Part shown: piece after piece, positions 13,594-44,385 of the stretch
Numbering within the stretch: position 1 is the first letter of the stretch
Layout of the letters: every line of letters begins with the position of its first letter
NCBI GenBank assembly: GCA_913020395.1
Contig: CAJWCA010000001.1
Coordinates: 1 to 47,491, forward strand
Source: an uncultured Cellvibrionales bacterium
Lineage (GTDB): Bacteria > Pseudomonadota > Gammaproteobacteria > Pseudomonadales > Cellvibrionaceae
DNA length: 47,491 nucleotides
Reading direction: 5' to 3'
Notes under the pieces: model-generated
What the model saw: only the letters and a program-made list of their open reading frames with translations
Told to the model about the DNA's origin: nothing
Database searches by the model: none
Made by a program: the position numbers and the translations under genes

Positions 13594-13602
13594 GGGCGTC
13601 TT

Positions 13603-16924: not shown

Positions 16925-16951
16925 TAATAATGACGAGAAAGGATCAGTACT

Positions 16952-21238: not shown

Positions 21239-21242
21239 AGCG

Positions 21243-22154: not shown

Positions 22155-22174
22155 TAATCGCTCCCGTTGTGTTA

Positions 22175-23614
22175 TTAGTTTATTTTGTAAAGCAGGCCGT
22201 CGTGTTTTTTCAGGTTCATGTCGGGCGCGGGCAGTGTGGTGCTGTAGGATTGCTTGATGGCATTGTTCCAGCTCACCGCACGTTCGTTAATTTGACCCTC
22301 GCTGTCTTGAACCCGACCGCGGGTTAATAAAATACCCAGGTCTGCACCTTTGTAGCTGTATTCCCCCGGTCCAAGTATTCTCAGGAAAAAACCTTCTGCC
22401 TGATCAGAGGCATTGCTCCAGTCTACCGAGCGGCGTAAAAATTCAATTTCGCCCTGTTCGTCAATGCGCCAAATTCCAGAGGCGGGGGCCGAGGTGATTA
22501 AACCCACTTTGTCGTGAGTTTGTTTCAATACCAGCGTGCTCCAGCTGTCGTAGTGCAACCAGCGCTCCTGTATCGCATCGAAATCCAGCTCATATTCAAC
22601 ATCAAAGAATTCTAACAAATGGAAAAATAACAGTGGCACACCACCGTATTTTTGGGTGATTAAATTGGTAACGGGCGAGGCGCCACTGATGCGCGGATTG
22701 ATTTCTCCCAGGTACACCTCTTCAGTGTCGCGATCGATAAGAAAGTCCATGCAGAAAGTACCTTTATACCCTTCTTTATAGAGCCGTTCTCCCAGAGCGC
22801 GGGTCATTTCTATGATGCGATTGCGTTGTGATTCAGTGAATACGGTAGCCGCGGTTTCATTCCCACACCAACCGCCTTTGTAAGGGGTTATGTCGGTGTG
22901 TCCAACCACTTCCATCATCACGGGCCCAACCAGTGTGCCGTATCGGGTCGCCACTCCCTCTACGGTTCCAGAAATGGGGTCAATACGTTTCATTATCTTC
23001 AGCTCTTCACCCACAATGTCCTTTTCATAACGTTGCCAGTCTTCGGCATTGTCGATAAAAAATGTGGTACGGCCAGAGTCGCCGTAAGGGGTTTGCACGA
23101 CCAATTGATCGCCAAGGCCCGCACTTTTTGCCTGCTTGCAAAGTGCCTCATAGGTATCTGCCTTGCCCAGCTTGTTGGGCACGCTGGCAACACCCGCTTC
23201 GTTGGCCAGTTGGGTGGTAAATATTTTGGAATCGATCCGGTCTCTCAACTCGGCCGGGGGCAGAGCGATTTCAAGGCCCAGTTTTTTCGCCAATACCTCT
23301 GTCTCCTCGTCAAACATCACTGTGAGGAGCTTTCCGCCGGGCGCTTGGCTGCGAATAAGGTTCACCACCTCTTTCTTTCTCAACAGGTAGTTGACAACAT
23401 CTACCATGGATTCAAATTCGGGTGCGTCTCGCTCGTCGGGCGTAAATACCCGATGGTGATGACTGTCAAAACAATCAAAATAGTTGATGTATTGTAAGGT
23501 AGGAACTAACTGTCCGAGTCCCAACACATTGAACGGCGATGCGGAAATAAAGTAAATCGGTGTTTTATTTTCGCTGAAGAAACGGTAGATATCATTGAGT
23601 CCTTTGAGCTTCAT
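22175..23614 (-). CDS. ATP-grasp family carboxylate-amine ligase with N-terminal pre-ATP-grasp domain; substrate unknown
   Basis: The central region, KIFTTQLANEAGVASVP...LVVQTPYGDSGRTTFFI...FCMDFLIDRDTEEVYLGEINPRISGA, shows an ATP-grasp fold pattern. I trimmed the start to the ATG at 23612-23614 (MKLKGLNDIY) with GAGGAA upstream. The track's longer ORF would overlap the upstream lipoprotein gene. Confidence 0.7.
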   Translation of the reverse strand: MKLKGLNDIYRFFSENKTPIYFISASPFNVLGLGQLVPTLQYINYFDCFDSHHHRVFTPDERDAPEFESMVDVVNYLLRKKEVVNLIRSQAPGGKLLTVMFDEETEVLAKKLGLEIALPPAELRDRIDSKIFTTQLANEAGVASVPNKLGKADTYEALCKQAKSAGLGDQLVVQTPYGDSGRTTFFIDNAEDWQRYEKDIVGEELKIMKRIDPISGTVEGVATRYGTLVGPVMMEVVGHTDITPYKGGWCGNETAATVFTESQRNRIIEMTRALGERLYKEGYKGTFCMDFLIDRDTEEVYLGEINPRISGASPVTNLITQKYGGVPLLFFHLLEFFDVEYELDFDAIQERWLHYDSWSTLVLKQTHDKVGLITSAPASGIWRIDEQGEIEFLRRSVDWSNASDQAEGFFLRILGPGEYSYKGADLGILLTRGRVQDSEGQINERAVSWNNAIKQSYSTTLPAPDMNLKKHDGLLYKIN

Positions 23615-23644
23615 GGTGTCATAATTCCTCGATTGATTGTCAGG

Positions 23645-23673
23645 TGTTAAATTATTGTTATTGTCTTGTTGTC
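23645..23673. promoter_or_regulatory. Three 11-bp-phased TGTT-type repeats upstream of the ATP-grasp gene
   Basis: TGTTAAA (23645), TGTTATT (23656) and TGTTGTC (23667), each start exactly 11 bp apart, lie in the 167-bp gap between the lipoprotein and ATP-grasp genes. This is a degenerate version of the TGTTAAC pairs found elsewhere in the locus. Confidence 0.35.
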
Positions 23674-23781
23674 GCTGTCTGTGAATGATTTGTCGCAGTA
23701 TTCTAAGTGAGCAGTGGGTAATGTGTTTCATTGACAAGAAACGGCGATACATAACCTGTTTTCCGGTGTTCCCATGGGCGC

Positions 23782-24360
23782 TCAAGTTTTTGCCGGTATA
23801 CATTGAATACCACCCTCGGGGTCTTCGGCAGAATTGCTGCTTGCTGTGGATGCTTTCAGTACTGATGGTTCAGTTAGTGCCGCGGGGGTAATTCGGGGAG
23901 TGGTGTTTGTTGCCAATGATTCCCGTTTGAAAGGTCTCCACTGACCCTGTTCTTTGATGTAAGCAACAAAACCATTGATATTTAAACTTGTTTCTCCATC
24001 AATCGTTTGAGCGTTCATTGCTGACAGACCGTCTTCTGAGATATTGAGTAAACGATGTAGTTGTCGCGTTTGAACAGAGTCCCACTCCTGTGACGACCAC
24101 TGACCAGAGAAGTGGAGCTGGGTAGTAAAATAAATCAGATATGCCGATTCACCTTGTTCACTGGTGTAGGGCTGACCGCCGCGTCTAGTAAAATCAACCA
24201 TCGATAACGCACCCTCGCCAAAGGTGTTATTCAGGCCAGACTGCAATTGTTCATTAATTGTTTTTCTATCGGGCCCCTGGCTGCACCCCGTGAGAAGCAG
24301 GCAGAGAGAAGCCAGCAGCAAAAAAAGCAAACTGGAAGACAAAACATTGGAACGGTTCAT
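23782..24360 (-). CDS. Lipoprotein of unknown function
   Basis: Signal peptide with the lipobox LLLTGC|S. No recognisable catalytic motif. It sits 9 nt downstream of gltS. Confidence 0.6.
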   Translation of the reverse strand: MNRSNVLSSSLLFLLLASLCLLLTGCSQGPDRKTINEQLQSGLNNTFGEGALSMVDFTRRGGQPYTSEQGESAYLIYFTTQLHFSGQWSSQEWDSVQTRQLHRLLNISEDGLSAMNAQTIDGETSLNINGFVAYIKEQGQWRPFKRESLATNTTPRITPAALTEPSVLKASTASSNSAEDPEGGIQCIPAKT

Positions 24361-24369
24361 TGTGTTTCC

Positions 24370-25590
24370 TCAGTGAACAAAGGGCAGCGCAAGATAAGAC
24401 TGAATAACCAATGCGTTGGTAATATCAATAAAAAAGGCCCCCACCATCGGCACAACTAAAAATGCCTGAGGGGAGGGGCCAAAACGGGAAACCAGTGATT
24501 CCATATTTGCCACGGCTGTAGGCGTGGCACCCAGACCAAAGCCACAGTGACCGCCCGCCATAATGGCGGCGTCATAGTTAGCACCCATCAACCGGAAGGT
24601 AATGAAGTAAGCAAACAGGGCAAGGGTGAATGTTTGCACCAGAATAATTAACAGAATGGGGCCTGCAAGATTGAGCAATTCCCAGATGCGCAGAGACATT
24701 AGTGCCATTGCCAAAAAGATCGAAAGCGCCATCGTGCCCCATAGGTCGACACAGGCTTTGCTGATTACATATTCACCTGAAAATTCGCAGGCATTGGTGA
24801 ATATAATGCCGAGGATCAGAGGTACAATAAATGAAGGAATAGGTACAGAATGCGCCTTTAACCATTCGTAGAGGTACGCACCTGCACTCATGCACATAAT
24901 TAAAATAAGCAGGGTTTCCATCATGCGCTTGGGCGTGACCAGGTCTTTGTCTTCCGGGTCGTAGGTGATGATGTCGTCGCGGTTGTGGTGGGCCTGATGA
25001 GAGGCGGGTTCAAGCGCGTGGCGGGCGATCAAGCGTTTGCACACTGGCCCTCCCAGCAATCCGCCCAGCACCAGGCCAAACGTTGCCGAGGCCATGGCGA
25101 TTTCCAACACACCCTGAAGATTGTGGCTGTCACCCAACATTTCGGCGTAAGTGGCGCCCGTGCCGTGCCCGCCAGAGAGTGTGATGGAACCGGCTATCAT
25201 GCCAAACAGGGGGTGCAGGTCTGTACTCAGGGCCATAGAAATACCGATGGCGTTTTGTACCATCAAATAGAGGCTGGCTACCAACAGGAAGAGAAAGACT
25301 TTGGGGCCGCCTTTCATCAAGAGTTTGAAGCTGGCCCCCAGCCCCACAGAGGTGAAAAACACGATCATTAAGGGTGTTTTTAAACTCAAGTCAAAATTCA
25401 GTGATACGTCAAACTGAGCGTAGAGCACCGCGCTGATCAGTGAGAATGCAATGCCTCCCACAACCGGTTCAGGAATATTATTGTCTTTAAGAAAGTGCAC
25501 TCGGTGATTGATGGCATAACCGGAAAACAGGATCAGCAGGGCAATGCCTATGGTTTCAAAAAAGCCAATATCAAAAGCCATAGCAAACAC
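24370..25590 (-). CDS. gltS: Sodium/glutamate symporter GltS
   Basis: About 400 aa and polytopic. The N-terminus ...ETIGIALLILFSGYAINHRV.FLKDNNIPEPVVGG and the overall pattern match the GltS family. Confidence 0.85.
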   Translation of the reverse strand: MFAMAFDIGFFETIGIALLILFSGYAINHRVHFLKDNNIPEPVVGGIAFSLISAVLYAQFDVSLNFDLSLKTPLMIVFFTSVGLGASFKLLMKGGPKVFLFLLVASLYLMVQNAIGISMALSTDLHPLFGMIAGSITLSGGHGTGATYAEMLGDSHNLQGVLEIAMASATFGLVLGGLLGGPVCKRLIARHALEPASHQAHHNRDDIITYDPEDKDLVTPKRMMETLLILIMCMSAGAYLYEWLKAHSVPIPSFIVPLILGIIFTNACEFSGEYVISKACVDLWGTMALSIFLAMALMSLRIWELLNLAGPILLIILVQTFTLALFAYFITFRLMGANYDAAIMAGGHCGFGLGATPTAVANMESLVSRFGPSPQAFLVVPMVGAFFIDITNALVIQSYLALPFVH

Positions 25591-25677
25591 TCTCGCAGGT
25601 GGGTGACGGTGTAGGCCGGTAATTTACCAGCTGCCTGTGTCTAAGCTATTGCTGAAATATGCCATGCGGTGATCAAG

Positions 25678-25710
25678 TGTTAACAAGCTGTTAACCCGGC
25701 AGATGTTAAC
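25678..25710. promoter_or_regulatory. TGTTAAC direct repeats in the gltS/decarboxylase divergent promoter region
   Basis: TGTTAAC occurs at 25678, 25689 (+11) and 25704. Confidence 0.5.
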
Positions 25711-25811
25711 CGAAGGTTTACAATTTATTGCAAGGTTCTTACCCGGCTGTGAGTGAGATTGGGTATTCTTTTGGCTCCAAATCCCCTACCCAGTAATCAC
25801 TTGGTGACAAT

Positions 25812-28676
25812 ATGGCTGCCCAAAAAACAGAAGAGATGTACAGCGCAATCGGTTTTTATCACCGTTTCTTCCACCAGCGTTCAGACACCTGGAATCAACT
25901 CAAAACAGATGTCGCCAGTTTGGCTAAAGAGAGCGAGGGGAGTGAGAAACTAGAGCGCTTGAATACCTCGGTTGTTAATGCTCTAGTGCAGTTAGAACGT
26001 TTTGAGGAATACACAGCGTTCCCTTCTAAGAGTGACTTCCAGTATTTGTGGCGGCTCTATCACAGCGAACAGTTTCAGCAATTGGACGTATCAGTGTCAC
26101 GGGTTGTGCGTGCGATTTCTTCCGGGATATACAGAAGTAAGTCCATTGTGCTCGATCAGCCTTTGATGAAAATGCATAAAGCCGAGGACGACCACCACGC
26201 CTCAGAGCTCACGCCAACGGTCACAAAAAGCAAAAATCGTCCTTATTTTGAGCTTCTGCTGGTTGATAATTTTTCGTCGGTTAAGCAGGAAGAGGCCGCC
26301 AGACGTGCTTTGCTGGACATGCGGCACGCCGATGACCGGTACATTTATGACGTTGTTGCGGTGAATAACTTTGAAGATGCATTGGTGGCTCTGCTCATCA
26401 ACCCGAATATTCAGTCATGTATTGTGAGGCATGACTTTGCATTTCGCTCTAAAAACGAAACCGGGTTTTTGCACCCCTATATGCCAAGTACCAATGATTC
26501 TGAATTTGCCGATCTGAAAGATGCGCAAAAGGGAGTGTTGTTGGGCACAGCGCTGAAAAACATACGTCCTGAAATTGATTTATTTTTACATACCAATAAC
26601 GCCTTGGAAGAGGCCGCCACGGGTGAGGCGCTCTGTTTTAACCGAATTTTCTACGGTGATCCGGACATTATTGAGCAGCACCACAGCATTCTACGGGGAA
26701 TTTATGGTCGTTATCAGACGCCATTCTTCTCCGCACTGCGTTTACATAGCCGGCGGCCTATCGGTGTTTTTCACGCCATGCCGCTGTCTCGGGGCAAGTC
26801 CATTTTTGCGTCAAACTGGATTCAAGACATGGCCGAGTTCTATGGGCGCAATATCTTTATGGCCGAGACTTCTGCCACATCCGGTGGTCTGGATTCCCTG
26901 TTGCAACCCCGGGGGCCAATGAAAAAAGCACAGGAATTGGCGTCGAAGGCGTTTGGTTCAAAAGAAACGTATTTTGTCACCAATGGCACGTCAACCGCCA
27001 ATAAAATTGTTGTTCAGGCGCTGATTAAACCGGGCGATATCGTATTGGTAGACCGGGACTGCCACAAGTCCCATCACTATGGCCTGATGTTAATGGGGGC
27101 CAATGTTTCCTATTTAGACTCCTATCCGCTTGATCACTATTCGATGTACGGTGGTGTGCCCCTGAGGGATATCAAGAAAAAACTGCTTGAATTCAAACGG
27201 GCGGGAAAACTTGATCGTGTCAAAATGTTGTTGCTCACGAACTGCACGTTTGACGGCATTGTCTACAATACTCGCCGTGTGATGGAGGAGTGTCTGGCGA
27301 TCAAACCAGACTTGGCATTCCTGTGGGACGAAGCATGGTTTGCCTTTGCAACGTTCAATCCAATTTATCGACCGCGCACGGGTATGCATGCGGCCAGAAA
27401 AATTAAACACACCTGCCGCACCGAAGACTATCGCAAGCGGTATCAGGAGTACAAAACGGCCTTTGATAAACTCGACCCGGAAGATGATGCCACCTGGCTT
27501 GATCGCCCGTTAATGCCAGACCCAGATAAAGTGCGCATGCGGGTATATACCACTCACTCAACCCATAAAACGCTCACGTCTCTGCGTCAGGGCTCGATGA
27601 TTCATGTCTACGATGAAGATTTCAGGAGTCAGAGTCGGGGCGCTTTTCACGAAGCGTATATGACTCATACCTCTACGTCGCCAAATTACCAGATTTTGGC
27701 GTCTTTGGATGTGGGCAGGCGCCAAGTAGATTTTGAGGGCTACGAGCTGGTTCACAAGCAGATTGAAGTGGCCTTGGCGCTTCGTGAGCAGTTGTATCGT
27801 CATCCCACCTTGAGCCGGTATTTTAAGGTTCTGGTGAATAAAGACCTGGTGCCAGGAGAATTTAGACAGTCGGGTGTCGAGAGTTACTACGATGACAAAA
27901 CCGGCTGGAGTCACATGGAGGATGCCTGGTATGACGATGAATTTGTGGTTGACCCAACACGCATCACTCTTTACATCGGTAATACAGGTGTTGACGGCGA
28001 CACCTTTAAAAACCGTTATTTAATGGACGCCCACGGTATACAGGTGAATAAAACCTCACGTAACACCGTTCTGTTCATGACCAACATTGGTACAAGTCGC
28101 AGCGCTATTGCCTACCTGATTGGTGTATTGGTTAAAATCGCCCGCGACCTCGATGTCCGGCAGGAAGAGAGTAGCCCGGCCGAACAATTGATCATAAAAA
28201 AACGCGTGGTATCTTTGACAAGGGAGCTGCCGCCGCTGCCGGACTTTAGCCATTTTCATCGAATATTTAGTCCGGGTTATGCAGATCAGACCACCGAAGG
28301 AGATATTCGCAAGGCTTATTTTGATGCTTATGATGATGAAAACTGCGAATTTTTGCGTATTGATAACGGCGATTTACAACGGAAGATTCAAAAGGGTTGC
28401 GAAGTGGTGGCCGCAACATTTGTAATTCCCTATCCTCCTGGGTTTCCCGTGCTGGTACCTGGGCAAGTAATCAGTGAGGAGATACTGGCGTTTATTCTGG
28501 CGTTGGATGTATCGGAAATTCATGGTTACAACCCCGATGTGGGTGTATGTGTTTTCCGAGATTCTTTACTGCAGGCGGAAGATTCCCGCCCGGAAACGAA
28601 AGTTATTACGCAAGAGAAAGTAGAGAAGGAGCGTATCAAAAAGAAAAGAGAGAAAAAGACCGCGGTCCCGCTTTAG
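25812..28676 (+). CDS. Orn/Lys/Arg decarboxylase family (fold-type I, LdcI/SpeC-like) PLP enzyme with extra N-terminal domain and Lys-rich C-terminal tail
   Basis: Motifs TNGTSTANKIVVQALIKPGD, DRDCHKSHHYG and the PLP lysine in YTTHSTHKTLTSLRQGS. A wing (receiver-like) domain starts near residue 145 (YFELLLVDNF...). About 140 aa of unmatched N-terminal sequence precede it. The protein ends ...KVEKERIKKKREKKTAVPL. Confidence 0.85.
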   Translation: MAAQKTEEMYSAIGFYHRFFHQRSDTWNQLKTDVASLAKESEGSEKLERLNTSVVNALVQLERFEEYTAFPSKSDFQYLWRLYHSEQFQQLDVSVSRVVRAISSGIYRSKSIVLDQPLMKMHKAEDDHHASELTPTVTKSKNRPYFELLLVDNFSSVKQEEAARRALLDMRHADDRYIYDVVAVNNFEDALVALLINPNIQSCIVRHDFAFRSKNETGFLHPYMPSTNDSEFADLKDAQKGVLLGTALKNIRPEIDLFLHTNNALEEAATGEALCFNRIFYGDPDIIEQHHSILRGIYGRYQTPFFSALRLHSRRPIGVFHAMPLSRGKSIFASNWIQDMAEFYGRNIFMAETSATSGGLDSLLQPRGPMKKAQELASKAFGSKETYFVTNGTSTANKIVVQALIKPGDIVLVDRDCHKSHHYGLMLMGANVSYLDSYPLDHYSMYGGVPLRDIKKKLLEFKRAGKLDRVKMLLLTNCTFDGIVYNTRRVMEECLAIKPDLAFLWDEAWFAFATFNPIYRPRTGMHAARKIKHTCRTEDYRKRYQEYKTAFDKLDPEDDATWLDRPLMPDPDKVRMRVYTTHSTHKTLTSLRQGSMIHVYDEDFRSQSRGAFHEAYMTHTSTSPNYQILASLDVGRRQVDFEGYELVHKQIEVALALREQLYRHPTLSRYFKVLVNKDLVPGEFRQSGVESYYDDKTGWSHMEDAWYDDEFVVDPTRITLYIGNTGVDGDTFKNRYLMDAHGIQVNKTSRNTVLFMTNIGTSRSAIAYLIGVLVKIARDLDVRQEESSPAEQLIIKKRVVSLTRELPPLPDFSHFHRIFSPGYADQTTEGDIRKAYFDAYDDENCEFLRIDNGDLQRKIQKGCEVVAATFVIPYPPGFPVLVPGQVISEEILAFILALDVSEIHGYNPDVGVCVFRDSLLQAEDSRPETKVITQEKVEKERIKKKREKKTAVPL

Positions 28677-29401
28677 ACCGCGCTCACCTCGGCGATAAAA
28701 ATGTAACCTGTGCCGTGGGCAGTATTGATGTATTTAGGATTGTCCCGGTCATCGCCAAGTTTCTTGCGAATCCGGGCAATCATGACATCAATCGTTCTGT
28801 CGGTTGGAAACCACTCTCTGCGTTCCATGCGGTTCATGATTTGATCCCGGCTAAGCACCGTGCCTGCGTGATTGATCAGGGTGTAGAGTAACTTGAATTC
28901 GCCCTCTGTCAGTTGAATGGACTCCTCGTCTGCCGTGAGCAGTCGGCGACCGACATGCAGAGTCCAACGATCAAAACTCACGGCGGTGGACGTTTTCAAG
29001 CCACTGGGGCCGGAGAGGGGGTTTGCCTTTACTCGAGACAGCAGGTTTTTGACTCGAGCAAACAGCTCTCGGGTGTTATAGGGTTTGGTGACGTAGTCAT
29101 CGGCGCCCAATTCGAGCCCCACAATACGATCGATATCGTCGTCTTTGTGTGTGACCAAAATGATGCCCACATCGGATTTATTGCGAATTTCGCGTGTCAG
29201 CGACAGCCCGTCTTTCCCGGGTAGATTGATATCCATCAGGATAACATCAACGGTATGTTGCTGAATGATCTTTTCAGCCTCATCGCCATTGACCGCCTTG
29301 TGAACGACGTAGTTTTCCTTTTCAAAATAGCTGGCAAGCAAGTTGAGGCTGGCTACTTCGTCTTCAACAATCAATATGCGTGGTGTCTGGTTGTCTGTCA
29401 T
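28673..29401 (-). CDS. OmpR/PhoB-family response regulator (receiver plus winged-helix DNA-binding domain)
   Basis: Motifs RILIVEDE, ILMDINLPGKDG, DDYVTKP and the C-terminal winged helix LTEGEFKLLYTL...RTIDVMIARIRKKL...GTGY. I prefer the ATG at 29399-29401 (MTDNQTP) over the GTG at 29422, but the choice is uncertain. Confidence 0.85.
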   Translation of the reverse strand: MTDNQTPRILIVEDEVASLNLLASYFEKENYVVHKAVNGDEAEKIIQQHTVDVILMDINLPGKDGLSLTREIRNKSDVGIILVTHKDDDIDRIVGLELGADDYVTKPYNTRELFARVKNLLSRVKANPLSGPSGLKTSTAVSFDRWTLHVGRRLLTADEESIQLTEGEFKLLYTLINHAGTVLSRDQIMNRMERREWFPTDRTIDVMIARIRKKLGDDRDNPKYINTAHGTGYIFIAEVSAV

Positions 29402-29415
29402 AGTAATAAAACGTC

Positions 29416-29454
29416 TGTTCACAATCTGTTAATAGTATAAGAGGCTTTGTTACA
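29416..29454. promoter_or_regulatory. TGTTCAC / TGTTAAT / TGTTACA phased repeats between the response-regulator gene and ggt-1
   Basis: TGTTCAC at 29416, TGTTAAT at 29427 (+11) and TGTTACA at 29448 (+21). Confidence 0.4.
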
Positions 29455-29584
29455 AACAACTAAGATTAGGTAATACCGGTTAATCACTTAGTTGGTATAG
29501 TACCGCTAGAAAGCAGTGCTGCTTTTTTCAAGGTCCTTGTCAGTGTAAGGGAAGAAAAATTAATTAACAAGTTGGTGATAAACG

Positions 29585-31351
29585 ATGTCGAATAGCAGGC
29601 TCAGCGTACGACTAATAAAAATATTTTGCTCGGCCATGACTGTAATCTGTGCTGTCTTTATCCAGGCTGATGCAGCCGCAGAAACACCTAAAAAAGCCTC
29701 AGTTTATATCTTGCGTTACGACGCCATTCACCAACCGGTTTACGGTGCCAATGGCATGGTCGCCAGCCAAAATACAGCCTCGAGTGAGGTGGGCCGAGAC
29801 ATATTAGCCCGTGGAGGGAACGCGATTGACGCGGCAGTTGCCATGGGCTTTTCATTGGCTGTCACACTTCCGCGTGCAGGTAACCTTGGGGGCGGCGGAT
29901 TTATGCTGGTTCATGTTGCAGCCGAAAACAAAACGGTAGCCATTGATTATCGAGGCACGGCACCGAGCCGTGCTAAAGCGAGTGATTTCCTCGATCGCGA
30001 AGGTAAGGTTGATGCAAAACGCAGCAAACTCGGCCACACCTCCTCCACCGTGCCTGGCACAGTTGCAGGTTTGTATGCCGCTCATCAGCGCTGGGGAAAG
30101 CTTCCCTGGAAAACCTTGCTTCAGCCCGCTATTAAACAAGCGTCAAAAGGTATTCAAGTCAACCGGGACCTGGCGTGGGCCATACAGGCCAAACGTTCCG
30201 TACTGGCCAAGAACCCAGAGTCACTCAACACTTTTTTTAAGGCCGATGGTGTCGGGTTTGAAGAGGGTGAACTGATGCGCCGACCCCAATTGGCAAAAAC
30301 CTTGAAGCTGATTGCCAAGAAAGGCCGCGACGGTTTTTATCGAGGTGCAGTCGCTGAAAAGATAGAAAAGGACATGGCTCTTCATGGTGGTTTGATCACC
30401 CGGGATGATCTCGCCAATTACGAAGCTGTTGTTAAAGCGCCGTTAAAAGGCAGTTACCGTGGCCACGACGTGGTCACAATGCCACCTCCTGCGGGCGGCG
30501 TTCATTTACTTCAAATGTTAAATACCCTGGAGCACTTTCCACTCGGGCAATGGGGCAGTCAGTCTTCAAAAACCGTGCATGTTTTGTCTGAAAGTATGAA
30601 GCGGGCCTATGCTTACAGGGCTGAATTTCTTGGAGATCCGGATTTTGCTTCAGTCCCCACCCAGTGGTTAATGAGCAAGACATTAGCGGCAGACCTGGCT
30701 GAAGGTATTACACCGAACCGCGCCACACCGGTTGCTGAGATCAAGCCGAAACACCCGGCCTCGTTGGATGAAAGTGCTGATACAACACATTATTCCATCA
30801 TGGACAGTGAGGGGAACGCGGTTTCCAATACTTATACCCTCAGTGCCTCCTTTGGGTCTGGTGTTACGGTAAAAGACACCGGCATTTTGATGAATAACCA
30901 AATCAACAACTTTGCGCTGCGTTATGGGGTGCCGGGCGCCACAGGTGCAAGAGCGAGTTTTGCCAACTCTCTAGCGCCTGGAAAGCGCACTAAAAGTACC
31001 CAAACACCCATTATTGTATTCGCTCAAGGTCGCCCCTGGTTCGCCAGTGGCACACCGGGTGGCAGGCGCATTATCACCACAATGGTACAGGTGGTCTCCA
31101 ATGTCATTGATCATGGAATGAATATCGCTGACGCCACCCATGCCCCCAGAATTCACCAGGGTTGGTCCTCAGATACCCTCGAACATGAACCTGGTTTTAG
31201 TGAAGACACACTGGGTGCATTGAGGGCCATGGGGCACCCGCTAAAACAAGGCGCCACGATGGGCAGCGTGCAATCGGTGCTGTGGCAGAACAATCAATTT
31301 AGTGGTGCGGCCGACCCTCGCAGGCCCAACGCCAGTGCCAGAGGATTTTGA
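29585..31351 (+). CDS. ggt: Gamma-glutamyltranspeptidase (periplasmic Ntn hydrolase), copy 1
   Basis: Signal peptide. Motifs GMVASQ, GGNAIDAAVA, LPRAGNLGGGGFML, the autoprocessing/nucleophile Thr in ADTTHYSIMD, and TPGGRRIITT. Confidence 0.92.
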   Translation: MSNSRLSVRLIKIFCSAMTVICAVFIQADAAAETPKKASVYILRYDAIHQPVYGANGMVASQNTASSEVGRDILARGGNAIDAAVAMGFSLAVTLPRAGNLGGGGFMLVHVAAENKTVAIDYRGTAPSRAKASDFLDREGKVDAKRSKLGHTSSTVPGTVAGLYAAHQRWGKLPWKTLLQPAIKQASKGIQVNRDLAWAIQAKRSVLAKNPESLNTFFKADGVGFEEGELMRRPQLAKTLKLIAKKGRDGFYRGAVAEKIEKDMALHGGLITRDDLANYEAVVKAPLKGSYRGHDVVTMPPPAGGVHLLQMLNTLEHFPLGQWGSQSSKTVHVLSESMKRAYAYRAEFLGDPDFASVPTQWLMSKTLAADLAEGITPNRATPVAEIKPKHPASLDESADTTHYSIMDSEGNAVSNTYTLSASFGSGVTVKDTGILMNNQINNFALRYGVPGATGARASFANSLAPGKRTKSTQTPIIVFAQGRPWFASGTPGGRRIITTMVQVVSNVIDHGMNIADATHAPRIHQGWSSDTLEHEPGFSEDTLGALRAMGHPLKQGATMGSVQSVLWQNNQFSGAADPRRPNASARGF

Positions 31352-31585
31352 AAATGATCAGTGTGGAGAGTAGTCAATCAATGAGTAAAAAAACGACCCG
31401 TTACCACTTGGCCGTCCAGCCCAACATGGTCCCCTATACCCGCTCACCGGCCATGGAACGAGATCACAGCGCTCAGCAGAACGGAGATCAGAAGGGCAGT
31501 AAATCACTGCCCTCGAGGCTTCCGGGCAGTGGATACACCTTTGAAGAGGTAGAGGATTGCGCTGAGCTGGGCTACAACTGAGCCC

Positions 31586-31603
31586 TGTTAACAACTCGTT
31601 AAC
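31586..31603. promoter_or_regulatory. TGTTAAC-N4-CGTTAAC repeat upstream of the second TonB receptor
   Basis: The sequence is cTGTTAACAActCGTTAACAAgg, with GTTAAC cores 11 bp apart, 156 bp upstream of the ATG at 31759. Confidence 0.5.
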
Positions 31604-31758
31604 AAGGTGATACAAGATGAGACGGCCCGCTTATTTGGCATTAACCACAGGGGAGTAGGATGAAATGGTAGGCAGGTAAATAGATCTGTCGCCATTCATG
31701 CAAAACAGCGGTCACAATAAAGCCCAGGTGTCAGACCCCGGGGCAATAGGAGAGCAGG

Positions 31759-34700
31759 ATGTTTAAAGCAAATAAATTAAGCCTTACAATTCTCGGTATT
31801 ATTTCGATGAATTCCACTCTGGCACAGAGTGTGAACGATGCCAATAATTCAGCCGAAGACCTCGATTTGATCCTCGAAGAGGTGGTGGTCACCGGCACCC
31901 ACATTAAGGGTGTAGATGTTGCAGGCGCACTGCCCGTTAGCATGTTGGACAGCGATGACCTCGATGCCATTGGCGCCTCAAGCACCGAAGAGTTGATAGC
32001 CGCTATTCCCCAGGCAGGCCAGGTAACTTTCAACAGCGACGATACCAGCACGTCTTCAAACAGTGTGCGGGGCGACGTTGGCTCTTTGAATCTCCGCGGA
32101 TTGGGCGCAGACAGCACGCTGGTTCTGGTGAACGGCCGCAGAATGGTAATGAATCCTTCCTCTTCTTCCGTTAACGGTGTGCCTGTTCAGTTTGTGAATA
32201 CCTCTATGTTGCCGGCGATGGGCATCGACCGGGTCGAAGTGCTACGGGATGGCGCTGCGGCGATCTACGGTACAGATGCCGTAGCGGGTGTAGCGAACTA
32301 CGTATTAGACACGGATTACGAAGGTTTTGAAGTGGCCGTTCGTCAAGGCGGTGCATCGGGTGAAAGCCTGAACGAAAACACAATTTCGGGCCGGGCTGGC
32401 TTCGAATTTAATGGCGGTCGCACACATGTCACTGTGTTTGGCAGTCGCTTTAATCGCTCGGGTATGGAGGCCAGCGAAGTGGAGTGGGCGGAGTCAAGTG
32501 ACTACCGCGAATCCGATAGAACACCCACTGATTTTATCGGCGATACCTCTCTCAGAAATTTGTCCACCTTCACCCCTTGGGGCCAATTCAATCTGGGTTC
32601 CATAGACTCGGCAACCGGCGCTTTTACGCCGGCGGGTGTATCGGGCATTGCCCGCAGTAGCGACGGTCGATTCCACTTGCAGCCTGAGGGCACCAGCGGT
32701 GGAACCTCTTTGGGTAATGGCATTGAAATTGATGACTCTACTTTGAACAGCGAACTGCGTTATAACATCAACGATCTGCGCATGCTTACCGGTGATATCA
32801 AGCGCAACAATGTCTTTGCGACCATGACACACGAGTTAGACAATGGCATTGAGATGTTTTCAGAAGCCTCTTATTACCAGTCTGATTACGCTTCGTATTT
32901 TGGCCCCAACGTCATTTCCGATGTGAACAAAATGTACATCCCCGCTGATTCCCACTACAACCCCTTTGGGCCGGTTGGCAGTGAACACAGAATGGCTGGG
33001 TTAGATCTTGCTGATGTGCCTGCTGAAGGTTTGAATGTGAAAGTGGATCGTCTGCGTCTTTACGACACAGGTCCAAGAACCATTGACGTTGAAGCGGACT
33101 CTTATCGTTTTGTCGGTGGATTGCGCGGTGAATTTGAAGGCTGGGATTGGGAGTCGGGTGTGTTTTATTCCGAAGCCAAGTCAACAGACTCTCAGTTGAG
33201 TGTGAGTCGCTCACGTTTTTATGAGGCGGTATCACGTACAACACCAGATGCCTACAACCCCTTCACGGGTGGTAACCCTGATGACGTTGCCAATGGAGAT
33301 CCCACCCCTGGTGGCGACGCTTCTGAGTTTACCGTGGATGTTGAACGCCACAACAAAACACGCCTAAGCGGTGCGGATTTTAAAATATCCACTGGATCTT
33401 TGTTTGCTTTGCCCGCGGGTGATGTAGGTGCTGCTTTTGGTATAGAGCAGCGTCGCGAAACCTATGACGACGATCGCGACCCTACACTGGATGGCACCAT
33501 CACCTTTACTCACCCATTAAGCGGTCAGTTCTTTGACAGTGACATTATGGGAGTGAGCGCGACTCCTGACACAGTGGGTAGCCGTGAAGTGTATTCAGCC
33601 TATGCAGAATTTATGGTTCCCATTATTGGTGATCATCAGAATATTCCCTTGGTAAAAAGCCTGAATGCACAACTGGCAATCCGGGGAGAAAACTACTCTG
33701 ATGTCGACGCCGATGTGGTGAAACCTAAGGTGGCAGTATCCTGGCGTCCGACCGACTGGCTGCAAGTTCGCAGTGCCTGGTCAAAAGGCTTTAGAGCACC
33801 AAACCTGGAAACGTTAAACTTGACCGTTCAGGAGCGTTTCAGCAACAACCAGGAAGACTTCCTTCGTTGTGCCACTGGCCAGGCTGCTGGCACCATAGAG
33901 GCTGATGTTGATGCTTGTTCCGCTTCCATCATTACACGCCGATTGGGCAACAGTGATTTGGAGCCTGAAGAGTCTGAAAACCTTACCTTCGGAGTCGTGA
34001 TTGAACCTACCTTTATTGAAGGTTTGACCGTGACCCTGGACTGGTGGGAAATTGAACAAGAAGGTGTTGTTGGGCTCTTTGGTCGTGACAATCACCTCCT
34101 GTTAGATCAGGCAATGCGCTTCCAGGGCAGCACCAACCCCGCCGTTGTACGGGCTGCGGCCACCGCTCAGGACCAGGCTGAAATGGATGCTTACAATGCG
34201 GCAAACAATACTAGTCTTGCCGCAGTGGGCAGCTTGCTTTACATCGATGATCAGTTCCTGAATTTGCAGCCACGTGCAATGCAGGGCACAGATATGAGCC
34301 TGACTTATCGTATTCCGGAAGGAGACTGGGGGCGTTTCACGCTTAAGTTTAACGCCGCTTACTTGATTAAATGGGACCAAGACGCGTCTTCGGATGTGAA
34401 TGCCCTGATGGAAGAGTTGAATGGCAACCCCTTGATCACCGGTGACGTGACCTCTGAAACAGTGGGCAGCCAGTTGTTGGACGAGAGCAAGCCACGCTGG
34501 AGAGCGAATTCCAGTTTGACTTGGAGTAAAGGACCCTGGCGCGCCGGTTTAAGTGCACGGTATGTGGGAGAGGTTTTTGACTACGATGTAGAAGCCGATG
34601 AGAACCCCGGTCAGCACCTTAAAATACCTTCGTGGTTAACCTTCAATACCTACGCAGACTATCGCGTTGAAGGTGGAGCGTTTGACAATACCCGTGTGAG

Positions 34701-34824
34701 ATTAGGTGTAAACAACCTGTCTGATGAAGAGCCACCACTGTTTGATGCCTCTGCGGGTTACAGCGCATCGCTGCATTCCAATCGGGGTCGCTATGTCTAC
34801 TTGGATATTAAGAAGTCGTTCTAA
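31759..34824 (+). CDS. TonB-dependent outer-membrane receptor (large, 1021 aa)
   Basis: Signal peptide, TonB box/plug LEEVVVTGTHIKG, RVEVLRDGAAAIYGTDAVAGVANY, a long barrel and the terminal ...YLDIKKSF. Confidence 0.9.
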   Translation: MFKANKLSLTILGIISMNSTLAQSVNDANNSAEDLDLILEEVVVTGTHIKGVDVAGALPVSMLDSDDLDAIGASSTEELIAAIPQAGQVTFNSDDTSTSSNSVRGDVGSLNLRGLGADSTLVLVNGRRMVMNPSSSSVNGVPVQFVNTSMLPAMGIDRVEVLRDGAAAIYGTDAVAGVANYVLDTDYEGFEVAVRQGGASGESLNENTISGRAGFEFNGGRTHVTVFGSRFNRSGMEASEVEWAESSDYRESDRTPTDFIGDTSLRNLSTFTPWGQFNLGSIDSATGAFTPAGVSGIARSSDGRFHLQPEGTSGGTSLGNGIEIDDSTLNSELRYNINDLRMLTGDIKRNNVFATMTHELDNGIEMFSEASYYQSDYASYFGPNVISDVNKMYIPADSHYNPFGPVGSEHRMAGLDLADVPAEGLNVKVDRLRLYDTGPRTIDVEADSYRFVGGLRGEFEGWDWESGVFYSEAKSTDSQLSVSRSRFYEAVSRTTPDAYNPFTGGNPDDVANGDPTPGGDASEFTVDVERHNKTRLSGADFKISTGSLFALPAGDVGAAFGIEQRRETYDDDRDPTLDGTITFTHPLSGQFFDSDIMGVSATPDTVGSREVYSAYAEFMVPIIGDHQNIPLVKSLNAQLAIRGENYSDVDADVVKPKVAVSWRPTDWLQVRSAWSKGFRAPNLETLNLTVQERFSNNQEDFLRCATGQAAGTIEADVDACSASIITRRLGNSDLEPEESENLTFGVVIEPTFIEGLTVTLDWWEIEQEGVVGLFGRDNHLLLDQAMRFQGSTNPAVVRAAATAQDQAEMDAYNAANNTSLAAVGSLLYIDDQFLNLQPRAMQGTDMSLTYRIPEGDWGRFTLKFNAAYLIKWDQDASSDVNALMEELNGNPLITGDVTSETVGSQLLDESKPRWRANSSLTWSKGPWRAGLSARYVGEVFDYDVEADENPGQHLKIPSWLTFNTYADYRVEGGAFDNTRVRLGVNNLSDEEPPLFDASAGYSASLHSNRGRYVYLDIKKSF

Positions 34825-34836
34825 AAGTAGATAGAT

Positions 34837-34867
34837 AAAAAAACGGGGCTTTATGCCCCGTTTTTTT
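34837..34867. terminator. Bidirectional Rho-independent terminator
   Basis: AAAAAAA-CGGGGC-TTTAT-GCCCCG-TTTTTTT lies between the convergent receptor gene (stop at 34824) and the binding-protein gene (stop at 34883). Confidence 0.85.
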
Positions 34868-34882
34868 ATGCCCAAATATTCA

Positions 34883-35656
34883 CTATTGCCATTTCTCCGT
34901 GAATGCTTGAAGGGAGGCGAGCCTGGTGGAAAACAGGCGGCCGTGTGTGCCGTCCTCTTTCAAGGCTTCAAACGCACTGCGAAGTTTCTTTACCAGTGCT
35001 GGATCAGAATCCAGGCTCAGTGCCATATAGAGCCCGTTAACCACTCCGTCTATTTCTACTGCCGGTTTAATTTTTTGGCAATCGATCTCCGTTCGCTGGC
35101 AGAGTGGAAAAATGCCGCCGTCACTCATCGCAAACAAATCAACACGTTCCAGCATTAGTTTTTTTAGATTCTGTGCGCTGTTGTTAACAGGTTGAAGTTG
35201 CTCAAACCCTTTGTCCAGCAGCATCTCGTGATGAGCGTGATAATTCACAACGCCAATTTGGTAGGGGCGGGCATCACTCAGCGTTTGCAGCTGAATGTCA
35301 CTCCGGTCTTTAAGTTGGAACAGGTAGTAGCGAATGGGCACCAGGGCTCCAATCCAGATAAAGTCTTGCTCGCGCTTTTGAGTTCTAGCCAGGGGGTAAA
35401 TTAAAACGTTGGCCTGTTTTCTGCCATTGTGATAAGCCCTTCGCCAGGGTAGATAGTTTAATTGATAATCGATGCCTGCCTGTTTTAGTAAGAGTTCAAC
35501 AAAACGGGTGGCCTCGCCATCGCCGGGGTTTTCTTCCGACGCGCGGGTGATGGGGGTTGATTCTGTATTGACGGTGAGCAATGGGTCGGCCCCGAGGCTT
35601 GAGTGGGCACCAATGCTTAGAGACACGGCCAATGCGATAGCTGAAAATTGTTTCAT
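34883..35656 (-). CDS. Periplasmic solute-binding protein family 3-like, orphan, cotranscribed with the hybrid kinase
   Basis: Signal peptide MKQFSAIALAVSLSIGAHS and an SBP_bac_3-like two-lobe pattern. Its start lies 4 nt after the kinase stop. No ABC transporter genes are nearby. Confidence 0.7.
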   Translation of the reverse strand: MKQFSAIALAVSLSIGAHSSLGADPLLTVNTESTPITRASEENPGDGEATRFVELLLKQAGIDYQLNYLPWRRAYHNGRKQANVLIYPLARTQKREQDFIWIGALVPIRYYLFQLKDRSDIQLQTLSDARPYQIGVVNYHAHHEMLLDKGFEQLQPVNNSAQNLKKLMLERVDLFAMSDGGIFPLCQRTEIDCQKIKPAVEIDGVVNGLYMALSLDSDPALVKKLRSAFEALKEDGTHGRLFSTRLASLQAFTEKWQ

Positions 35657-35659
35657 AAC

Positions 35660-37978
35660 TTACTCGAGCTCGTTAAAAAAGGTATTTAAATTATCAAAAG
35701 TTTGTTTTTCCAGTTTGTCGATTCCCTGAAGGTATTCCGCCGTTTTGGCAATGTCCTTGTCGGCGGCTGCCGTTTCAATATTCGAGGCCATCTCTCTCAG
35801 GCTGGGCAGGCCAAAATTGGCGCACATTCCCGCAAGGGCATGTGCATGTTCTTCTAGACTGCCCAGGTCGCCTTCCTCCAGCGCTTGGTGCAGAGATTTA
35901 ATACGACCATTTGAGGAGTCTTGCGCCTCACTGTAGAGGTCTCGCAAGGTTTCACTGCCGAGATTCCTGTAGTGTTGTTCAATCAGTGTGATCTCGATCG
36001 TTTTGAGAGACGAGGGCTGTGATTCCGTTCGTTTTTTCAATGTTTCGGGGTCGATCACCTCTGCGAGTAGTTGATAAAGGTGATTCGCTTCAATGGGCTT
36101 GGTTGTCACTGCATTCATACCTGCCGCCAGACAGTCTTTTTTACGCTGTTCGGAAATATTGGCTGTGATGCCAATCACCGGAGTATTGGCGATGCTGGCT
36201 TTGCCCAGTTGGCGAATTTTTTGAGTCGCGGTAATGCCGTCCATCACCGGCATGTGGAGATCCATTAACACCACATCGACGGTATCCTGTTGAATGATTT
36301 CAATGGCTTCCGCGCCATTGTTGGCCAGCAATACTAGATGTTTCTCAGCTTCCAGTTGTCCCTTTGCCAGCTTCTGATTAATGCTGACATCATCGACCAC
36401 CAAAATTCTGAGTGGCGGTGTTTCATGGCCGGGAGTTTCATGCACTTCGTAGCTGAGGTCCTCAGTCATTTCAGTGAAAGGCAGGGAGAACCAGAAATGG
36501 CTGCCCTTGTCGGCCTCACTTTCGAAATCGATGTTGCCGTGTTGTTGGGAAACTATTTGTTTGCAAATGGATAGCCCCATGCCGGTGCCTCCAAACTGCC
36601 GACTGATAGATGCCCCGGCCTGAGTAAAAGGGTCAAAAATCTGTGTTTTGGCTGAGTCGGGTATGCCGATGCCGGTATCGATGACAGAAAACGTCAGAGT
36701 CAGCGCGCCGTCGGCATCCCGCACCTGGGAAACTTGTACTTTGACAGAGCCTTGAGTGGTAAATTTTACGGCGTTGGAAATCAGGTTTAGCAATACCTGG
36801 CGAAGTTTGTCCGGGTCTCCACCCAGGGTCTCGGGGATCTCAGAGTCAATATCCGCACTGAGCAATATATGTTTTTTTTCAGCCGAGGCGGAGAGTAGAA
36901 AGATAATACTGTTGACCAGACGGTGCGGATTGAAAGGTATATGTTCAAAGGACAGTTGGCTCTTTTCGTATTTGGAATAATCCAACACCGTGTTGATCAG
37001 GGCGAGCAGGGATTTTCCCGAGTCGAGAATCGCTTCAATGTATTCGCGTAGCCCCCGATCCTTATTTTGACTACTCAACAACTGTGTCATGCCTAAGATG
37101 CCGTTCATGGGTGTGCGTATTTCATGGCTCATCATGGCTAAAAAGTCTGACTTGGCCTGACTGGCCTGCAGGGCGGCGGTTTTCTCCAGGTCGAGTTCTC
37201 GGTTTTTCTCGTGTAGTTGCTGGGTGCGTGTCTGCACGAGCTTTTCCAGGTTGGTATTGGTTTCGATAATTTGCTGATGCTGAGCGTTGATGATTTCGAG
37301 GTGTTCATTAAAGCCATTGATTAAAACGCCAAATTCGTCCTGCCGGTGTGAGTCGGGCAAGGGAATACGTTCGTTAGTGGTGCCCTTTTGCAAGCGCGAG
37401 CTCGCATATAAAATCGATTTTGTGAGTGTAAAATAGAAAACGGCAATCAGAATTAGAGCCAGTAATAAATTTGATAACAGACCCGAAATTAGAACAACGA
37501 GCGCTCGCCGAATGAAAGTGGTTGCCGAAATCGCCGGATCAACTTCCACCCTTAATGTACCGATGACCTCGGCATTGACCCCCTCGTCTATGAGTTCGAG
37601 CTCAAGTGTTTCCACATTCCCGAACAGCCATCGGGTAAACGGTGAGGTGGCCGGTTGATCGGGGTTGTGTGCACTGCCCAGTGCGTTGCCAAAATTGTCG
37701 GTAATGGCCGCCAGAATGATCTGGGGGTTGCTCACCAGCCCTCGGGTAATCTGCAGCGCACCATTCTCGTCAATGTTATAAGCCGCATGGTAAGCGGCCC
37801 GGTTAGCGGTGGTCAGCGCTTTGTTAACCGAGATATTCATCTCGTTTCGCAGGGAAAAGTAATCGAGTCCGATTTGTACCGAACTGAAAATAACGCCCAG
37901 TATAAAGGCGACGATGACCGTGTTTTTGGCCTGCCGGTATGACAGGCTTTTTCTCAATGGAATAGCGGAACTGGGCAT
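35660..37978 (-). CDS. Hybrid sensor histidine kinase (2 TM + periplasmic domain, HAMP, HisKA, HATPase_c, REC, Hpt)
   Basis: H-box FLAMMSHEIRTPMNGILG; N/G boxes LLNLISNAVKFT, DTGIGIP and GGTGMGLSIC; receiver ILVVDD...VLMDLHMPVMDG; C-terminal Hpt HAHALAGMCANFG. Confidence 0.9.
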   Translation of the reverse strand: MPSSAIPLRKSLSYRQAKNTVIVAFILGVIFSSVQIGLDYFSLRNEMNISVNKALTTANRAAYHAAYNIDENGALQITRGLVSNPQIILAAITDNFGNALGSAHNPDQPATSPFTRWLFGNVETLELELIDEGVNAEVIGTLRVEVDPAISATTFIRRALVVLISGLLSNLLLALILIAVFYFTLTKSILYASSRLQKGTTNERIPLPDSHRQDEFGVLINGFNEHLEIINAQHQQIIETNTNLEKLVQTRTQQLHEKNRELDLEKTAALQASQAKSDFLAMMSHEIRTPMNGILGMTQLLSSQNKDRGLREYIEAILDSGKSLLALINTVLDYSKYEKSQLSFEHIPFNPHRLVNSIIFLLSASAEKKHILLSADIDSEIPETLGGDPDKLRQVLLNLISNAVKFTTQGSVKVQVSQVRDADGALTLTFSVIDTGIGIPDSAKTQIFDPFTQAGASISRQFGGTGMGLSICKQIVSQQHGNIDFESEADKGSHFWFSLPFTEMTEDLSYEVHETPGHETPPLRILVVDDVSINQKLAKGQLEAEKHLVLLANNGAEAIEIIQQDTVDVVLMDLHMPVMDGITATQKIRQLGKASIANTPVIGITANISEQRKKDCLAAGMNAVTTKPIEANHLYQLLAEVIDPETLKKRTESQPSSLKTIEITLIEQHYRNLGSETLRDLYSEAQDSSNGRIKSLHQALEEGDLGSLEEHAHALAGMCANFGLPSLREMASNIETAAADKDIAKTAEYLQGIDKLEKQTFDNLNTFFNELE

Positions 37979-38070
37979 ATTAGGGGTCTCTGGCCAATCC
38001 TGAAGGTGCTGTAGTCAGTGTAAAGCCTGACAGAGGTTTAGCAATAGCCAGCCCGGGGGCGCGAGGGCGG

Positions 38071-38130
38071 TGTTAACAGCCTGTTAACAATTTGATGCAT
38101 TCGTTGACCTGCCCGTTAATGGCGGGTTAC
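38071..38130. promoter_or_regulatory. Array of TGTTAAC-like repeats in the kinase/ggt-2 divergent region
   Basis: TGTTAAC at 38071 and 38082 (+11), followed by the weaker CGTTGAC (38102), CGTTAAT (38114) and GGGTTAC (38124) at steps of about 10-12 bp. Confidence 0.5.
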
Positions 38131-38222
38131 ACCCGCTTGATATAGTTAGATCTAGTCTACAACCTCCAGAGTTGACCTTGTTTGTCGGTTGCTCATGGCC
38201 TAGATATAAACGGGAAATTGTT

Positions 38223-44268: not shown

Positions 44269-44385
44269 GGTGGCCCTTTTCGGTCCTCTCGCAATGATCT
44301 TCTGTAAACTCCGCCAGGCCCGGAAGGGAGCAACGGTAGCAGAAAGTATCATGTGCCGGGATGTGGCTGACTTGGGCTGCCACCT
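44269..44385 (+). ncRNA. ffs: Signal recognition particle RNA (4.5S RNA)
   Basis: GGTCCTCTCGCAATGATCTTCTGTAAACTCCGCCAGGCCCGGAAGGGAGCAACGGTAGCAGAAAGTATCATGTGCCGGGATGTGGCTGAC is collinear with E. coli 4.5S RNA. The match includes the domain IV GGAA tetraloop and the AGCA / GUGCCGGGAUGU elements. The ends GGTGGC...GCCACC pair. A possible promoter is TTGCAA (44223) - 17 nt - GATAAT (44246). Ends are approximate, within about 10 nt. Confidence 0.85.

Follow-up and report, generated by a model that had tools for sequence, protein, structure and literature searches.

An 11-bp-phased TGTTAAC box pair as the candidate operator of an ArcA/TorR-clade response regulator encoded in a TonB-receptor and gamma-glutamyltransferase locus

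Does a short repeat that recurs with an 11-bp period between genes for outer-membrane uptake, gamma-glutamyl cleavage and two-component signalling mark the operators of one locus-encoded regulator? We examined this question in a 47,491-nucleotide stretch of DNA from an uncultured Cellvibrionales bacterium (assembly GCA_913020395.1, contig CAJWCA010000001.1, positions 1 to 47,491; hereafter the window), for which an original prediction had proposed that TGTTAAC heptamers with starts 11 bp apart define a candidate regulon of the response regulator encoded at 28673-29401. Taken as a whole, the best explanation of our results—to which we assign a probability of about 0.8—is that the paired heptamers are operators of this regulator, through which it would govern the uptake and breakdown of gamma-glutamyl compounds.

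A pattern search combined with reading of the sequence located exact TGTTAAC heptamers at 25678, 25689, 25704, 31586, 38071 and 38082, together with the near-exact units CGTTAAC at 31597, TGTTCAC/TGTTAAT at 29416/29427 and GGTTTAC at 25715, and confirmed the 11-bp offset between starts at 25678/25689, 25704/25715, 29416/29427, 31586/31597 and 38071/38082. When up to two mismatches per pair were allowed, five plus-strand matches were found at spacing 11, all in intergenic regions of the locus, and zero to two pairs at each of the other spacings from 7 to 29. The five pairs are given below, with scores under a weight matrix built solely from non-window sites in the related loci L081-L090.

25678-25695, plus strand: pair TGTTAACaagcTGTTAAC in the divergent gltS/decarboxylase intergenic region, with exact heptamers; 21.1 bits.
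25704-25721, plus strand: second pair TGTTAACcgaaGGTTTAC in the same gltS/decarboxylase region, 15 bp out of phase with the 25678 pair; 17.9 bits.
29416-29433, plus strand: pair TGTTCACaatcTGTTAAT between the regulator gene and the first gamma-glutamyltransferase gene (GGT-1), 14 bp from the ATG of the regulator; 19.5 bits.
31586-31603, plus strand: pair TGTTAACaactCGTTAAC ahead of the TonB-dependent receptor gene; 29.8 bits, higher than any other score in the window.
38071-38088, plus strand: pair TGTTAACagccTGTTAAC between the hybrid kinase operon and the second gamma-glutamyltransferase gene (GGT-2); 26.1 bits.

The consensus of these pairs can be written as TGTWAAC-N4-TGTTAAC, and the flanks agree as GTTAACAA, just as had been noted before. 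The 8-bp palindrome TGTTAACA gives a direct repeat on either strand, which leaves the orientation of the repeats unreadable from the sequence.

The pairs are not accounted for by chance. In dinucleotide-preserving shuffles the window yielded 0.138 +/- 0.38 pairs against the five observed (paired occurrences being about 36 times commoner than in shuffles), and shuffling the four intergenic regions alone gave 0.007 pairs. An unbiased repeat search over 23600-38200 returned, as the top direct-repeat family, a 19-nt pair in four copies at 25677, 29415, 31585 and 38070. Under the orthologue-only matrix the five pairs rank first in the window, while control DNA—80 loci, 1.35 Mb in all, carrying OmpR-family paralogues 35-45% identical to the regulator—contains 0.3 matches above 14 bits per 47.5 kb. 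It could be argued that the repeats are accidents of composition without function, given that short heptamers recur randomly and that the 15 single TGTTAAC copies observed were reached in 2 of 100 shuffles; yet the pairs exceed the shuffled level so strongly, are confined to four intergenic regions and keep their position and spacing over dozens of diverged loci, so that we regard this explanation as effectively refuted.

The comparison with related loci, which had been proposed as phylogenetic footprinting, gave a clearly positive outcome: the pair recurs at equivalent intergenic positions of orthologous loci. About 40 such loci were assembled, L081-L090 through exact look-ups of the regulator protein and L091-L123 through a metagenome scan seeded with the binding protein of the locus, a route independent of both the motif and the regulator. 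Regulator orthologues are many, with identities of 55-88%, the closest named organism being Sessilibacter corallicola (Cellvibrionaceae). All loci of the first set carry a pair at equivalent intergenic positions, down to about 66% regulator identity. Between L091 and L119, an 18-28-bit pair was found in each locus that covers the receptor/regulator or the GGT/kinase intergenic region, with few intragenic matches, of 13-15 bits only; binding-protein identity in the pair-bearing loci recruited through that protein is 43-62%. The matrix scan found no pairs in L121-L123, in which the binding protein is 26-35% identical, and these are probably different systems.

The spacing itself is equally well kept. 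A count over 344 kb from 19 non-redundant loci gives 22 near-perfect pairs with the 11-bp spacing, whereas none of the other spacings between 7 and 30 yields more than one; in the 1.35 Mb of control DNA no spacing at all exceeds one pair. The pair upstream of the receptor is present in every locus covering that region except L081; the 38071 pair is conserved in L090, L092, L093, L094 and L096 and partly in L083; and L085 carries two pairs in a divergent intergenic region between the glutamate dehydrogenase operon and gltS. In two alignments, A3 (the region divergent from the regulator, eight loci) and A2 (the kinase/GGT-2 region), the invariant columns fall on the pair. In many orthologues unit 1 reads TGTAAAC or TGTGAAC, with the 11-bp spacing still strict.

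Several further copies had been described around the pairs, and these fared unevenly. The weaker units at 29448 and 38124 are conserved in the orthologue alignments and that at 38102 partly so, whereas the unit at 38114 shows no conservation there and was rejected. The first of them can be described as follows.

29448-29454, plus strand: extra unit TGTTACA (the TTTACAAAC block in orthologues), 20-21 bp past the second unit of the pair and conserved in A3; taken alone it scores weakly, at 1.4 bits.

Of the five intergenic regions held to be marked by the repeat, four are supported; the fifth, upstream of the ATP-grasp gene, is not.

23645-23673, plus strand: the "degenerate triplet" 23645/23656/23667 of the original prediction, scoring 5.1 and 5.8 bits on the pair matrix.

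This triplet is intergenic because the true start of the ATP-grasp gene is Met64 at 23614, as an alignment with a 479-aa orthologue indicates. Its scores are at chance level (control DNA gives about 14 matches above 6 bits per 47.5 kb) and no orthologous region is available for comparison; it was therefore rejected as a regulatory site. Two intragenic matches were likewise set aside and are probably due to chance, judging from the comparable genes: one within GGT-1 (30429-30449, 16.6 bits), which orthologous GGT-1 genes do not have, and one within the CN-hydrolase gene (21653-21673, 14.9 bits), formed by a GTTAAC at 21655 and a weak 11-bp partner and missing from L087, the only locus comparable. 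The statement that stray GTTAAC hexamers are all single and unpaired inside genes consequently needs amending, since it had overlooked this copy and another at 35036.

Turning to the promoters, we assigned putative ones from conserved -10 blocks, three of which are listed here.

29478-29501, plus strand: putative GGT-1 promoter, with unit GGTTAATC at 29478-29485 and an extended -10 element TGgTATAGT at 29493-29501, within a conserved -10 block.
31640-31661, plus strand: putative receptor promoter, with an ATTAAC unit at 31640-31645, 10 bp, and the -10 hexamer TAGGAT at 31656-31661.
38125-38146, plus strand: putative GGT-2 promoter, with a GGTTAC unit at 38125-38130 and an extended -10 element TGaTATAGT at 38138-38146; alignment A2 shows conservation of both GTGTAACC and the -10 region.

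At the receptor the order is pair, degenerate AACAAG unit, single GTTAAC-like unit, 10 bp and TAGNNT, and four further loci, L083, L085, L087 and L088, share with the window a pair-to-TAGNNT distance of exactly 52 bp. For GGT-2, TGnTATAGT lies 52 bp after the pair in the window and in L090; for GGT-1, whose place is taken by a peptidase M14 gene in other loci, the -10 block follows 62 bp after the pair in the window and the stretch is ungapped in eight loci. On the decarboxylase side, a -10-like TATTCT hexamer at 25764-25769 stands 42 bp past the end of the 25704 pair and may mark its promoter, and in distant loci a TATTCT follows the pair at 41-43 or 52 bp. With spacings of 42, 52 and 62 bp the pair centres would lie at about -63, -73 and -83, and the pair therefore stays on one face of the helix. 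The promoters also carry extra weak in-phase units, one of which ends 10-11 bp upstream of the -10 element. A sigma-70 consensus scan found no full promoter in three of the four regions and one weak match, on the gltS side, in the fourth; no -35 consensus was seen at these promoters. An architecture with the pair upstream and no -35 consensus fits an activator. Transcription would be predicted to start at about 29508 (GGT-1), 31668 (receptor) and 38153 (GGT-2).

A different effect is suggested for the regulator itself. Its pair lies 14 bp from the start codon in the window and 8 bp in L087-L089, and because this leaves no room for a promoter between pair and start codon, negative autoregulation is suggested: the gene, or the operon of regulator and kinase, is most likely repressed by its own product. 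Within the predicted leader of about 90 nt of the receptor mRNA we also noted a GC-rich hairpin (31723-31742) just upstream of the ribosome-binding region, which belongs to no Rfam family; an Rfam search of the long leaders returned no RNA element.

Which protein, then, would read the boxes? Three gene products form the candidate signalling chain.

28673-29401, minus strand: ArcA/TorR-clade OmpR-family response regulator, the proposed binder, with REC (PF00072, E 1.7e-30) and Trans_reg_C (PF00486, E 3.3e-24) domains.
35660-37978, minus strand: hybrid histidine kinase with the Pfam arrangement HisKA-HATPase-REC-Hpt and with two predicted transmembrane helices that flank a short periplasmic loop.
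34883-35656, minus strand: secreted family-3 solute-binding-like protein of 257 aa with a signal peptide, always directly after the kinase.

Pfam confirms both earlier gene calls, that of an OmpR-type regulator and that of an Hpt-bearing hybrid kinase, and the regulator can on its profile scores be narrowed to the ArcA/TorR clade: TorR and ArcA are the NCBIfam families that it matches best, at 257.8 bits (cut-off 275) and 242 bits (cut-off 334), with neither cut-off reached. The best matches of the kinase are TorS, BarA and ArcB, again all below their cut-offs. For the binding protein, Pfam gives SBP_bac_3 at E 0.005 only and hhalign aligns it to a bona fide SBP_bac_3 protein with 94.4% probability; a PDB profile search with it found no match, and a single-sequence AlphaFold model was unusable at a pLDDT (predicted local distance difference test) of 36. 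It is likely the ligand sensor. Regulator, kinase and binding protein are always linked, whatever the cargo genes, the kinase always neighbouring the other two; the regulator is co-operonic with the kinase in three loci, and the conserved cassette encodes no other DNA-binding protein. Directly next to the regulator gene, or to the operon of regulator and kinase, there is always one of the pairs. Moreover, the recognition helix of the regulator, PTDRTIDVMIARIRKKL, is close to PHDRTVDVTIRRIRKHF of ArcA. The earlier proposal that the locus regulator controls the boxed units is thus supported by conserved linkage, strict spacing and an ArcA-like recognition helix, from which we infer binding; and the box is what one would predict, by sequence, for a protein of the ArcA/TorR clade.

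Membership of the wider OmpR/PhoB family shows in the receiver plus winged helix and in the strictly 11-bp period of the operator. Pho boxes are bound by a head-to-tail dimer, and the place of the -35 element is taken by a unit whose end lies about 10 bp before the -10 element. The boxes described here share with PhoB and PhoP boxes the two 7-bp direct repeats of 11-bp period, but have another sequence; the PhoB and PhoP cut-offs are far above the scores of the regulator, and the strong pair sits further upstream (about -63 to -83), with only a weak single unit at the pho-box position. A PhoB-DNA model is referred to in PMC4173790.

Closer parallels are found in the TorT/TorS/TorR system. There too a hybrid kinase, a separate periplasmic binding protein and an OmpR-type regulator are combined, a strong box pair with weaker proximal boxes occupies the intergenic region from which the regulator gene and a target operon diverge, and the best NCBIfam matches of our regulator and kinase are TorR and TorS. 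TorR binds decameric tor boxes, CTGTTCATAT (PMC9239176), and one unit in the window reads CTGTTCACAA. The geometry suggesting autorepression is a further likeness; autorepression is reported for torR. However, the scores fall below the equivalog cut-offs (257.8 versus 275 for TorR, 415.8 versus 676.5 for TorS, TIGR02956), the TorS sensor domain is absent, with the kinase aligning only over residues 161-765, and the partner is a family-3 solute-binding-like protein that matches no NCBIfam family, TorT included; its role would be analogous, its family a different one. The window holds no torCAD or trimethylamine N-oxide reductase genes, and the consensus is TGTTAAC(A), not TGTTCAT, only one unit reading TGTTCAC.

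ArcA raises the most serious alternative, namely that the boxes are bound mainly by a genuine global ArcA, or by another ArcA/TorR paralogue, tying the locus to the redox state of the cell. ArcA binds two ATGTTAAAAA repeats 11 bp apart centre to centre, with additional repeats at 11 or 22 bp (PMC4173790), and the TGTTA(A) core, the centre spacing and the extra weaker repeats one or two turns away are all found here. The exact agreement of TGTTAA core and spacing with the ArcA minimal site is accompanied by cross-recognition: our pair matrix matches TTGTTAGCATGCTGTTAACAT (9773-9793 of L003, a Vibrio metagenome-assembled control) at 20.7 bits, 228 bp upstream of a genuine arcA with arcB nearby. 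The partner kinases also resemble each other, both being hybrid with REC and Hpt domains, as do the recognition helices. Still, the regulator (242 versus 334 bits) and the kinase (288 versus the ArcB cut-off of 838) miss the equivalog scores, whereas the true Vibrio ArcA and ArcB in L003 reach 487 and 1306 bits. The boxes have a conserved C at unit position 7 (1.1-1.2 bits) and GC-rich spacers with columns of 0.1-0.3 bits, and do not show the A-rich 3' half of the 10-bp ArcA repeat ATGTTAAAAA. The sites lie upstream of promoters, suggesting activation, while ArcA mostly represses; the regulon is local and catabolic, not global and redox-related; and, in place of quinone sensing, the kinase appears to be coupled to a periplasmic binding protein. 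Above all, the boxes travel with the regulator-kinase-binding-protein cassette in about 40 loci irrespective of cargo, one pair staying next to the regulator gene or its operon. ArcAB is also typical of facultative anaerobes and less so of Cellvibrionaceae-like aerobes, among which the closest named relative belongs. Because the boxes co-travel with the cassette and differ from ArcA boxes, we consider control by ArcA or another such paralogue unlikely.

The palindromic nature of the units invites another explanation, in which GTTAAC or TGTTAACA would serve a symmetric dimeric regulator, restriction-modification or some other non-transcriptional role and the pairing would be incidental. GTTAAC is a type II restriction site, and the 8-bp symmetry leaves the repeat orientation unreadable. 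Against this, unit 1 is so often the non-palindromic TGTAAAC or TGTGAAC while the spacing stays strict, single GTTAAC hexamers within genes are at chance level (14 observed, 9.4 expected), the cassette conserves no other DNA-binding protein, and the -10 distances are fixed in helical register; we judge such a role very improbable, even more so than control by ArcA. Operators of the locus regulator thus remain the preferred reading, that is, a system that to all appearances works like TorT/TorS/TorR and ArcB/ArcA yet falls outside both families by their membership scores.

Some observations do weigh against assigning the pairs to the locus regulator. The -10 elements are putative ones, assigned from conservation; the kinase-promoter spacing varies somewhat (48 versus about 45 bp); and the pairs at 25678 and 25704 do not share one helical phase. 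The orthologue-only matrix is partly circular, its sites having been located with the motif of the original prediction, a concern eased by the unbiased repeat search, the spacing histogram and alignments A2 and A3. Binding, phosphotransfer, the direction of regulation, the ligand and the substrate are all inferred. Further genes may belong to the regulon, or another regulator may share the boxes, and given how closely the motif resembles the ArcA box, these sites could also be bound by a true ArcA in a host that possesses it.

The genes behind the pairs indicate what the regulator would control.

31759-34824, plus strand: TonB-dependent receptor with plug and barrel domains and a signal peptide; core regulon member.
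29585-31351, plus strand: periplasmic gamma-glutamyltransferase GGT-1 (Pfam/NCBIfam), with a clear signal peptide.
38172-39935, plus strand: periplasmic gamma-glutamyltransferase GGT-2 (Pfam/NCBIfam), with a signal peptide if the start is an internal GTG.
25812-28676, plus strand: 954-aa Orn/Lys/Arg-decarboxylase-family enzyme (Pfam/NCBIfam), with an orthologue in L087.
24370-25590, minus strand: GltS (Pfam/NCBIfam), heading the one-strand run below.
20243-25590, minus strand: one-strand run, a probable operon, of gltS, a gene of unknown function (192 aa), ATP-grasp (22175-23614), CN-hydrolase and AAT/peptidase C45.
31381-31581, plus strand: small open reading frame (ORF) of 66 aa ending in ELGYN, with its stop codon 4 bp before the receptor pair.

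The true start of GGT-2 is probably the GTG near 38220. In the gltS run, four junctions are tight, at 4-20 bp, and a gap of 167 bp separates the 192-aa gene from ATP-grasp; we take the five genes to be, probably, one operon. Across loci the conserved cassette comprises the regulator, hybrid kinase, binding protein, TonB receptor and usually a GGT, with a variable cargo of peptidase M14, Amidohydro_3, PGA_cap, CN-hydrolase plus AAT, the large decarboxylase, GltS, NAD-glutamate dehydrogenase and a PF03553 transporter. Elsewhere the pairs stand before CN-hydrolase plus AAT (L087) and before gltS plus a homologue of the 192-aa protein (L085).

The small ORF has counterparts with the same tail in L081 (9533-9706, minus strand), L085 (7731-7919, minus), L087 (9561-9749, minus) and L088 (9557-9775, minus). 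These LGYN proteins are hydrophilic, 57-72 aa long and variable in sequence, with an invariant C-terminal LGYN after acidic residues, and their genes never lie outside the regulon: they stand between GGT and the TonB receptor, or come first ahead of peptidase M14. In the 1.35 Mb of control DNA there is no ORF of this type. The protein may serve as carrier or scaffold, or else as a leader peptide.

The remainder of the window encodes unrelated functions and is without strong sites. A methyl-accepting chemotaxis protein gene (40032-41180, plus strand) starts 96 bp after GGT-2 with no box between, and may be co-transcribed with it, linking chemotaxis to the regulon. A 19-nt near-repeat, TACCCAGTAATCACTTGGT / TACCGGTTAATCACTTAGT, joins 25787-25805, just before the annotated decarboxylase ATG, and 29474-29492, at the GGT-1 unit nearest the promoter; it may be due to chance, or else point to another promoter of the decarboxylase gene, whose true start codon would then be a later one. 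Two clusters have no TGTTAAC pairs: 6427-10240 (minus strand), which includes a methylamine-dehydrogenase heavy-chain-like gene, and 11230-18376 (plus strand), which encodes two AMP-binding ligases, an aldehyde dehydrogenase and a second TonB receptor, from which a TetR gene (10387-11130, minus strand) diverges. The only Rfam match of the window is a bacterial small SRP RNA at 44278-44375 (plus strand; RF00169, 76.8 bits).

Drawing these elements together, we propose that the binding protein at 34883-35656 would bind a ligand, probably a gamma-glutamyl compound or glutamate, and signal to the hybrid kinase, which would pass phosphate along a His-Asp-His(Hpt) relay to the regulator. The phosphorylated regulator would dimerise head-to-tail on two units one helical turn apart, activating the TonB receptor, GGT-1, GGT-2, the decarboxylase and the gltS operon, while repressing its own gene through the pair near the start codon, as in torR. 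Outer-membrane uptake, periplasmic gamma-glutamyl cleavage and the import and catabolism of glutamate would be the output. The uptake and degradation of gamma-glutamyl compounds is proposed because the targets include a TonB receptor and periplasmic GGT, with glutamate and peptidase genes as cargo. A bolder and clearly more tentative view would see here a novel three-component gamma-glutamyl sensor, widespread among marine Gammaproteobacteria and made up of the secreted family-3 binding protein, a TorS/ArcB-like hybrid kinase and the ArcA/TorR-clade regulator, that drives a dedicated TonB-dependent "gamma-glutamyl utilisation locus", with the LGYN protein perhaps a carrier or scaffold processed by the M14, ATP-grasp and GGT enzymes nearby.

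Literature searches for the motif or for a two-component system associated with GGT and TonB genes found nothing relevant. In its mechanism the system would be no departure from known OmpR-family regulators, and the regulon prediction is in that respect a fairly ordinary one; what it provides is a testable operator, promoter architecture and core regulon for an uncharacterised two-component system whose cassette is shared by many marine metagenomes and by Cellvibrionaceae associated with corals. DNA recognition of the ArcA/TorR type would here be reused for a local catabolic switch. The core of TonB receptor and periplasmic GGT points to the dedicated scavenging of gamma-glutamyl peptides, glutathione-like compounds or polyglutamate—a plausible, little-studied part of the turnover of marine dissolved organic nitrogen.

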